In this document: piece after piece, positions 20,757 to 21,770 of the stretch
Position numbering within the stretch: position 1 is the stretch's first letter
Layout: the number at the start of each line of letters is the position of its first letter
NCBI RefSeq assembly: GCF_947568905.1
Contig: NC_079171.1
Location: 4,898,001 to 4,962,000 of the forward strand
Source: Ostrea edulis
Lineage: Eukaryota
Direction: 5' to 3'
DNA: 64,000 nt
Translations under genes and position numbers: made by a program
Notes under the pieces: model-generated
Told to the model about the DNA's origin: nothing
Databases searched by the model: none
Seen by the model: the letters and a program-made list of their open reading frames with translations, nothing else

Positions 20757-21770
20757 TTATTCACAGTCACTTTCACTTATGAATAAGTCTTGTGAGTCAC
20801 CAACATTACATTCCATGGAGGCACTGGTCTCTTTAGGTTCATACCCGAAGGGTGTACACTCGGGACAACTCAACATCCCCAGTTGATTTTGATGAGATTC
20901 GCTGAATGCACACAGTTCTGCGTTATTTAACTCGGGAACACATTCTCGCACTTCTTGAATGGCCTGTAGTAATCTGGTCAGTTTGTGTTTGTTTAACGTC
21001 ACACCCTTTCGTGTTGGAACCGGCTCCGGGGCATCCTCTGGTTTCCAGAAGTGTCTTATGTCCACCGTAGCATATCCGGGGGTGATGGAGACATACACAC
21101 CACCGCCGATATGCCATTTCATTTCTTCCGTTCCACTGCTTTGCAGATTCTCTTCGATATCTGGTAGAATGGATTCAAACATCAGCCATCTTGATAACGG
21201 AAACGTCACCCCCTTCTTTGTTGCAAAAAAGTGACCGTTTGCATTAGTAAAGTGACGGATATGAATGTTGATTTCTCCCTTAAAGGGAACAGCTGTGAGG
21301 AAAAGGTCATTGAAGTCATCCAGATTGATCCTACATCGTTCTTGATTTTGAGACTCTTGTCGTTCAACAGAGCTCCTCTGTGGTTCCACATTCACTTTTC
21401 GCTTTTCGGCTGTACTCACTATTAATGACCTGGCCATGGCTAATTTCTTTTGGTACTCGGATGTAGTATCATCACTGCCAGCGAGAAGCTTGGATAACTC
21501 CGTTTGGTTGGATTTCATCAGAGCCACCCGGAGACCCCTGAAAGCTTTAGGCCCTCTTCGGAGAATGATACTTATTAGTTTTCTGTTTCTGTCGTAACTG
21601 GTTTTCTCTGCTTCAATTTGTTCTTTCATTTCGTCTGTTATAATGTTAGAGACAAAGAGATGTCCGGCGACCGAAGATGGTATCATTTTCTTTACCAAAG
21701 TCGTGTAGTTAGCCTTAATAATGTCTTGGTGCTTTGGCTCCATAACTGCTGAAACGATGTAGTGCTCCAT
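20757..21770 (-). CDS. CARD-like death-fold domain fused to two PC4-like domains and a C/H-rich tail (homologous start probably Met at 21743)
   Basis: CARD pattern LVKKM...VAGHL...IITDEMKEQI...T...NRKL..IILRRGPKAF...AL. PC4 patterns IHIRHF...TKKGVTF and VDIRHFW...TRKGVTL. Conserved in C. Confidence 0.85.
   Translation of the reverse strand: MEHYIVSAVMEPKHQDIIKANYTTLVKKMIPSSVAGHLFVSNIITDEMKEQIEAEKTSYDRNRKLISIILRRGPKAFRGLRVALMKSNQTELSKLLAGSDDTTSEYQKKLAMARSLIVSTAEKRKVNVEPQRSSVERQESQNQERCRINLDDFNDLFLTAVPFKGEINIHIRHFTNANGHFFATKKGVTFPLSRWLMFESILPDIEENLQSSGTEEMKWHIGGGVYVSITPGYATVDIRHFWKPEDAPEPVPTRKGVTLNKHKLTRLLQAIQEVRECVPELNNAELCAFSESHQNQLGMLSCPECTPFGYEPKETSASMECNVGDSQDLFISESDCE

Follow-up and report, generated by a model that had tools for sequence, protein, structure and literature searches.

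A CARD joined to tandem PC4 repeats is carried by Mavericks of the flat oyster Ostrea edulis and has been assayed as 'caspase 2'

The 64,000-nucleotide stretch of the Ostrea edulis genome analysed here (contig NC_079171.1 of GCF_947568905.1, positions 4,898,001 to 4,962,000; hereafter the window) contains three related Mavericks, A, B and C, each of which bears a gene that joins a CARD to two PC4 repeats, followed in B and C by a putative zinc site (CARD-PC4x2-Zn). We confirm that this gene is accessory cargo of Mavericks (polintoviruses) in O. edulis, and we find that a published quantitative PCR (qPCR) assay for O. edulis 'caspase 2' detects a 12-copy Maverick gene. The PC4x2 core has a precedent of matching fold in a gene labelled MOSUB in adintoviruses, and the CARD+PC4 family was already in print as a host gene; what is new here is its viral origin, the fusion of the CARD in mollusc Mavericks, and the likely route of that fusion. 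An earlier note on this DNA, made from the letters of the sequence, had taken the architecture to be unfamiliar from Mavericks, a view that these precedents (MOSUB for the core, 'caspase 2' and CgCARDCP-1 for CARD+PC4) do not bear out; its interpretation is supported in part, as regards the death fold, the PC4 repeats, the viral context and selection on the CARD.

The copy in Maverick B occupies 20757..21770 on the reverse strand as a single exon, with a reading frame unbroken over 337 codons, and since its relatives begin at the second methionine (window position 21743) the protein is probably 328 amino acids long. The copy in Maverick C (29203..30195, forward strand) encodes 330 amino acids and is 80% identical to it. 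The N-terminal CARD-like domain and the two PC4-type repeats that the earlier note had recognised are both borne out. In copy B, Pfam places the CARD at residues 16-98 (E 3.4e-13; 49.9 bits against a cut-off of 23.9) and matches PC4 as two stretches (E 3.9e-13), the corresponding values in copy C being 6.7e-15 and 1.5e-13. In an AlphaFold2 model of copy B (mean predicted local distance difference test score 78), the CARD (residues 10-98; 21477..21743, reverse strand) is formed by six helices at residues 12-95 and is followed by an additional helix (105-116), a disordered linker (122-141) and two PC4 beta-sheet/helix repeats. The modelled CARD overlays on the Apaf-1 CARD over 89 residues (Z 16.2; root-mean-square deviation 1.0), and residues 142-283 overlay on Pur-alpha with 129 residues aligned (Z 10.6; root-mean-square deviation 4.0), in agreement with Foldseek.

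Within the core, repeat 1 (residues 144-210; 21141..21341, reverse strand) retains F/Y163, R172 and TKKG, with T, A or K at the Trp position of the IRxxW motif, and repeat 2 (residues 216-283; 20922..21125, reverse strand) reads DIRHFW, in which R239 and W242 are invariant. Host PC4/Sub1 and Pur-alpha have the same beta-sheet/helix repeat with the same IRxxW and (T/G)xKG motifs. PC4 has one repeat and dimerises, and Pur-alpha, like the window core, carries two repeats in one chain as an intramolecular PC4-type dimer; to our knowledge neither has a CARD or a CHCC tail. The conserved tail noted earlier in B and C proves to be a C-x5-H-x8-C-x2-C motif (residues 287-305; 20856..20912, reverse strand), a zinc site that is putative and named from its motif alone, with C287, H293, C302 and C305 kept in 48, 48, 49 and 49 of 49 aligned relatives, respectively. 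By Pfam, the caspase domain Peptidase_C14 is absent from the proteins of copies B and C, and no protease, death domain or NB-ARC follows the CARD, that position being occupied by PC4x2. The chain ends in an acidic tail (residues 310-337; 20757-20840, reverse strand) that is under purifying selection (ratio of nonsynonymous to synonymous differences, pN/pS, 0.26) and has a conserved D-x-x-D (DSQD/DLQD) that resembles a caspase site.

Mavericks, or Polintons, are recognised by terminal inverted repeats with AG...CT ends and a 6-bp target duplication, and this hallmark is seen at both ends of A, of C and of two young copies described below. Maverick C runs end to end over 27501..48244 (forward strand; 20.7 kb), from AGTAGT to ACTACT, with inverted repeats and the target duplication CTCGAT. 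For Maverick B one end only was located, at 23383; the portion inside the window (14574..23383, reverse strand) comprises accessory genes, integrase, capsid module and the 3' end of the polymerase gene. Nested in that polymerase gene is Maverick A (~21.4 kb; target duplication ATCGTC; window positions 1-14573 and L031:3086 onward), which bears its own intact CARD-PC4 gene (L031:4608-5585). Both CARD-PC4 copies in B and C sit directly upstream of a retroviral-like integrase with a chromodomain (Pfam rve and chromo; rve E 1e-12), at 19360..20514 on the reverse strand in B and at 30457..31614 on the forward strand in C, so that the position next to the integrase, and with it the viral context claimed earlier, holds in both. 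The protein-primed DNA polymerase B region of C (35909..40580, reverse strand) is read as three open reading frames (ORFs) and matches DNA_pol_B_2 with E 1e-26. The capsid, packaging ATPase and protease genes match Pfam below cut-off (E 0.005-0.009) and lie inside the expected conserved block; among them, the double jelly-roll major capsid protein is at 32605..33918 (forward strand) in C and at 17053-18369 in B (a weak match; B copy E 0.007).

The association extends across the O. edulis genome, where a search returned 50 matches at 30 loci, counts that are lower bounds. An integrase lies within 1.5 kb at 28 of these loci, which, because two locus pairs overlap, represent 26 distinct copies; the remaining two are a locus with a capsid gene and a 97-aa fragment with neither kind of gene. 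The CARD+PC4x2+Zn frame is unbroken at 19 of the 30 loci, all 19 adjoin the integrase, and none of these unbroken copies was found outside a mobile element in this search; where Maverick neighbours are lacking, only fragments of the gene are present (L029/L048, L044). A young subfamily of 12 copies on four contigs shares 98-99.97% DNA identity and has 63% amino acid identity to copy B, and the two members whose ends were checked measure ~21.4 kb, with ~230-bp inverted repeats, AGTAGT termini and differing 6-bp target duplications. Since near-identical copies have Maverick ends and different target duplications, the family must have transposed recently. A further 18 stretches of 10 kb around weaker matches contained Maverick core genes in 12 cases. 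Among them are a further lineage that bears a CARD but lacks the zinc tail (L032, 30% identity) and lineages that have PC4x2-Zn but no CARD (L033 and others). Three pairs of copies (L001/L002, L003/L004 and L007/L008) are 99.4-99.9% identical and lie 20-28 Mb apart on C8, which may reflect recent transposition, segmental duplication or assembly duplication.

The CARD is maintained by purifying selection. Across six diverged copies, the ratio of nonsynonymous to synonymous substitution (dN/dS, by Nei-Gojobori, with synonymous sites partly saturated) was 0.135 for the CARD, 0.12 for each PC4 repeat, 0.13 for the integrase and 0.57 for the linker, and the zinc-motif segment had the lowest pN/pS of the gene (0.09). 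Three RNA runs, with 4-20% of the words found, gave no evidence on expression.

This gene has been measured before under a different name. Gervais 2018 (PMC6104086) lists O. edulis 'Casp 2' qPCR primers with a stated product of 242 bp. Each primer has 12 exact sites in the genome (reversed control, 0), and all 12 are young Maverick copies, in which the predicted product is likewise 242 bp and spans CARD codons 70-76 to PC4 codons 144-150. The forward primer has two further sites at one mismatch, both in degraded copies of the CARD-PC4 gene, and with 4-7 mismatches per primer the window copies B and C would not be targets. None of 45 genome matches to Peptidase_C14 falls at CARD-PC4 loci. The record is thereby corrected: the published flat-oyster caspase 2 assay reads a 12-copy Maverick gene, a target which, being multicopy and intronless, is prone to genomic-DNA carry-over.

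The same paper tabulates a 738-nt O. edulis transcriptome contig matching a 250-aa C. gigas 'Caspase-2' (75.7% over 239 aa), which fits transcription of the CARD-PC4 family. A review (PMC7836458) describes the O. edulis 'caspase-2' of Gervais 2019 (PMID 31442589) as no caspase and as 77% identical to CgCARDCP-1, and states that the gene is raised after Bonamia infection together with more apoptosis; the 2019 work presumably had the target of the 2018 primers. CgCARDCP-1 of Crassostrea gigas (Wang 2018, PMID 29751033), whose title reports NF-kB activation and lipopolysaccharide (LPS) recognition, is cited in PMC9223095 as an oyster PC4 in immune signalling, alongside PC4 gene expansions in bivalves and two intronless two-PC4 genes in scallop. 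It is also listed as stimulated by LPS and Vibrio, and a Mytilus coruscus relative, P0236, is labelled 'CASP2'. With a layout that we take to be a CARD plus two PC4 repeats, CgCARDCP-1 very probably belongs, together with O. edulis 'caspase 2', to the same family as the window gene, the link being indirect. The papers treat these proteins as a host receptor or a caspase, whereas the O. edulis gene is here carried by Mavericks and has no protease domain. If this is extended to other bivalves, CgCARDCP-1 is probably viral cargo too, as is part of the 'PC4 expansion' (PMC9223095), and where the expression of 'caspase 2'/CgCARDCP-1 changes with infection or stress it may reflect the activity of Mavericks.

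As to the class of the CARD, a six-sequence profile ranked Apaf-1 (4e-9) and RAIDD (2e-8) well ahead of MDA5 (0.007), a RIG-I-like receptor, and BCL10 was not among its 43 matches. By profile, fold and score the domain belongs to the apoptotic adaptor class, nearest to RAIDD/CRADD, Apaf-1 and caspase-2/9; unlike those proteins, the window protein has PC4x2 in place of the death domain, NB-ARC or caspase domain. Both this class and the RIG-I/MAVS type had been put forward for checking, and the latter is ruled out by the profile ranking. Host CARDs for comparison comprised 17 of 75 Pfam matches, locus L043 and three caspase loci. The best scores of the 10 core fused CARDs were 97-154 against RAIDD-like or caspase-linked host CARDs and at most 107 against ten other host CARDs, and some fused CARDs have diverged widely from those of the host (scores 25-82); in oysters, mussels and pearl oyster alike, the oyster-type CARD is nearest to host apoptotic CARDs. 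The nearest of the host CARDs compared is the single-exon L043 (61.6 bits, the next scoring 33.3), for which the best PDB match is RAIDD, followed by the two-exon CARDs of caspase genes. L043 itself has a RAIDD-type death domain at 478-783 (forward strand; E 7e-9) and, 4 kb away on the opposite strand, a RAIDD-type CARD at 4842-5114 (E 6.5e-8) that terminates in two stop codons; one repeat excepted, no Pfam-matching exon was found downstream of this CARD among 56 ORFs, although one longer relative exists, and the arrangement may be an inversion, a split gene or a CARD-only gene.

How the fusion may have arisen is suggested by two metagenome loci, L096, which is a Maverick by its integrase, capsid, protease and ATPase genes, and L097. 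Both have the gene string CARD-RING, PC4x2-Zn, TBP-like (L096:168-1967; L097:48-3073), in which CARD-RING and PC4x2 are two distinct genes, the former immediately upstream of the latter. L097 additionally has a BIR gene and an RVxF-type ORF, and its CARD scores higher against L043 (188) than against the window CARDs (116-123). Because the two genes stand side by side but unfused in these related Mavericks, we propose that the fused gene was probably born in a mollusc lineage by the joining of an adjacent viral CARD gene to PC4x2, a plausible case of gene birth from two neighbouring viral genes. A single origin of the 16 fused CARDs is compatible with the data (approximately unbiased test, p-AU 0.61), and in the CARD tree the viral CARD-RING CARDs group with L043 (81/82). 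The TBP homologue borne by the L096 and L097 elements may merit separate study.

Searching with a profile built from the core yielded 1,159 representatives (E<=1e-10), host PC4-repeat proteins included. Among the best 150 of these, the zinc motif is present in 115 and a Pfam CARD (E<=0.01) in 13; most lack a CARD and begin with a disordered arm. The named CARD-bearing relatives come from Ostrea, Crassostrea/Magallana, Saccostrea, Pinctada, Mytilus and Haliotis, and the named close relatives of the window gene are oyster proteins. In relatives of Mytilus edulis P0074 (P0075-P0077 and P0082) a small Cys/His module replaces or precedes the CARD, and other core relatives have CCHC or C2H2 fingers there, which marks the N-terminus as a swap site. 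SUMO-interaction-like motifs, which a crude pattern used without a control picked out in 7 of 46 N-terminal arms, were dropped as a candidate. On a core tree of 150 of 159 rows, built by a quick method only after nine short rows (CARD-bearing P0093, P0149 and P0218 among them) had been set aside, CARD gain and loss required 11 changes, at least five of them forced, several of the 'CARD-less' rows being truncated gene calls. Maverick core genes were found at 10 of 40 metagenome loci and, since most of these are short contigs, the Maverick link outside oysters is shown in few cases.

In a viral fold search the best match to the window protein was the 'MOSUB' of a Branchiostoma lancelet adintovirus (E 5.7e-6 over 167 columns; structurally aligned residues 16% identical), and another MOSUB stood at rank 28. 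These adintovirus proteins (UniProt A0A5H3CIS2 and A0A5H3CT48) likewise place a PC4/MoSub1-like fold in a Maverick-type element, near an inverted terminal repeat; they differ in being ~200 aa long, with no room for a CARD, and it is the fold match that likens them to the window core. In the text and readable supplement of PMC8502044, MOSUB occurs once, as a map label (Suppl. Fig. S2), and CARD and PC4 are not used as gene terms. ESM Atlas gave nothing beyond one mollusc CARD+PC4 cluster with 61 members, to which the protein itself probably belongs, and scans of IMG/VR found no relative. Literature searches, whose coverage lay outside subscription journals and bioRxiv supplements, returned no paper for CARD-PC4 or tandem-PC4 phrasings and none tying CARD+PC4 to Mavericks; nor did word searches find such a link in PMC10748475, PMC11161782, PMC10967218 and PMC7549692 or in the preprints 2024.03.25.586562, 2023.10.06.561300 and 2025.04.19.649669.

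The reading that we favour, tentatively and at somewhat less than even likelihood, is that of a viral protein that binds single-stranded DNA (ssDNA) and whose CARD acts as a decoy in initiator-caspase signalling. The core, a widespread Maverick protein, has two PC4 repeats that together make up the PC4 dimer fold within one chain, with a probable zinc site as its cap. Mavericks replicate in a protein-primed, strand-displacement mode, and the core would most likely bind the ssDNA displaced in this process or exposed at integration, which would make tandem PC4 a candidate ssDNA-binding protein of a large Maverick group. In a mollusc lineage this core would have acquired an N-terminal CARD of the apoptotic adaptor class. 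As no catalytic or death domain follows it, we read the CARD as a dominant-negative decoy, presumably for host caspase-2/9-like initiator caspases or a RAIDD-like adaptor; delivered to sites where viral ssDNA would raise a damage alarm, it might let the cell survive the activity of the element. Iridovirus vCARD, equine herpesvirus E10 and cellular CARD-only decoys, like the window protein, have a CARD without a catalytic domain, and viral CARD proteins appear at ranks 9, 13, 14 and 21 of the fold search; we know of none in which the CARD is fused to a nucleic-acid-binding module. If the reading is right, the gene defines a virus-host interface in farmed shellfish, with a death-fold domain wired to a DNA-binding module.

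The neighbourhood of the gene fits an anti-host role. Upstream of it lies an ORF for a GADD34/ICP34.5-like protein, at 22471..22689 (reverse strand; 72 aa) in element B and at 28771..29016 (forward strand; 81 aa) in element C, with Pfam PP1c_bdg matches below cut-off (E 5.9e-4 and 6.1e-5, respectively); its KKVQF in B is, we assume, an RVxF-type motif for PP1 recruitment. The ORF is conserved upstream of the CARD-PC4 gene in other copies, and our literature search found no paper linking such PP1 recruiters to Mavericks. Related elements have BIR and CARD-RING genes, and adintoviruses are reported to have Bcl2 and IAP homologues (PMC8502044, section 3.2).

Several observations weigh against the decoy reading or parts of it. 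The PC4 core has a net charge of -2 and is not basic, and repeat 1 has no Trp equivalent to W89, the base-stacking residue of PC4 (PMC4350104), so ssDNA binding may be weak or one-sided. The TBP-like gene that follows PC4x2 in L096 and L097 hints at transcription rather than replication. CARD-CARD binding and its direction are predictions from sequence, and the NF-kB title of the CgCARDCP-1 study suggests activation rather than damping. Gervais 2018 (PMC6104086) saw no significant modulation of the amplified gene by Bonamia in vitro. Lastly, the CARD tree does not unite the fused CARDs with the viral CARD-RING CARDs; as it does not reject their union either (p-AU 0.117), we put the fusion route forward as a hypothesis.

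Activation is the substance of one alternative, in which the CARD rewires signalling for the element, for instance through NF-kB for survival or element transcription, as the CARD of equine herpesvirus 2 E10 activates NF-kB. The CgCARDCP-1 title, its listed stimulation by LPS and Vibrio, and the E10 CARD proteins at ranks 9 and 13 speak for it; we nonetheless think it unlikely, given the lower scores of fused CARDs against other host CARDs than against RAIDD-like or caspase-linked ones, the absence of BCL10 from the profile matches, and an NF-kB effect of CgCARDCP-1 that was reportedly small (~1.3-fold in HEK293T). We are similarly doubtful that the CARD is a self-assembly module only, serving cooperative DNA coating or a scaffold with a TBP-like factor and touching no host death pathway. 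Since most relatives have no CARD (13 of the best 150 do), the core evidently works alone, and the TBP-like genes of L096 and L097 and the far-diverged fused CARDs would suit such a module; yet in three bivalve groups the nearest relatives of the oyster-type CARD are still host apoptotic CARDs, and no TBP gene was seen adjoining the window copies.

The same parts could instead make a host-serving switch. A ligand-binding module, a flexible linker and an adaptor-type CARD have the layout of a sensor, in which PC4 on long ssDNA would cluster CARDs and activate an initiator caspase, so that cells with runaway replication of Mavericks or other DNA viruses die and the host germline or animal is protected; the transcriptome contig, the amplification of the gene by qPCR in hemocytes and its reported rise with apoptosis after Bonamia (PMC7836458) are in keeping with this. 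Selection has, however, retained the gene inside elements that are still spreading, beside genes that counter the host, and with no intact copy found outside an element in the O. edulis genome we regard a one-chain death switch as very unlikely. A broader version, a mollusc Maverick coupler in which PC4 repeats gathered on long ssDNA cluster the CARD and switch initiator-caspase or NF-kB signalling upon DNA-virus replication, seems to us quite unlikely; were it true, oysters would have gained a nucleic-acid sensor from a still-mobile endogenous virus, and the immune activity reported for CgCARDCP-1 would be that of a viral gene. That the gene is an ordinary host immune gene, CgCARDCP-1 or caspase-2, merely lying in or near Mavericks is how it has been published and annotated, down to the 'CASP2' label on P0236. 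It is, however, intronless and has no caspase domain, host caspase-linked CARDs being split over two exons, the 'Casp 2' primers match Maverick copies only, and the integrase stands beside every unbroken copy, those without Maverick neighbours being fragments. With no element-free intact copy, this account is refuted for the O. edulis genome as far as searched, and we give it hardly any credence.

The window holds several further features. In element C, a 144-aa ORF (27967-28401, forward strand) that encodes a hydrophobic helix and matches PC4 once and weakly (E 0.013) is kept in several copies, and in element A a 252-aa ORF (8669-9427, reverse strand) is made of 30-33-nt repeats and has no Pfam match. 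A BEL/Pao long terminal repeat (LTR) retrotransposon occupies 52909-61050, its 830-bp LTRs being 99.6% identical, and a THAP-domain ORF (51681-52277, forward strand) and a YqaJ/alkaline-exonuclease ORF (63200-63685, reverse strand) probably belong to other mobile elements.
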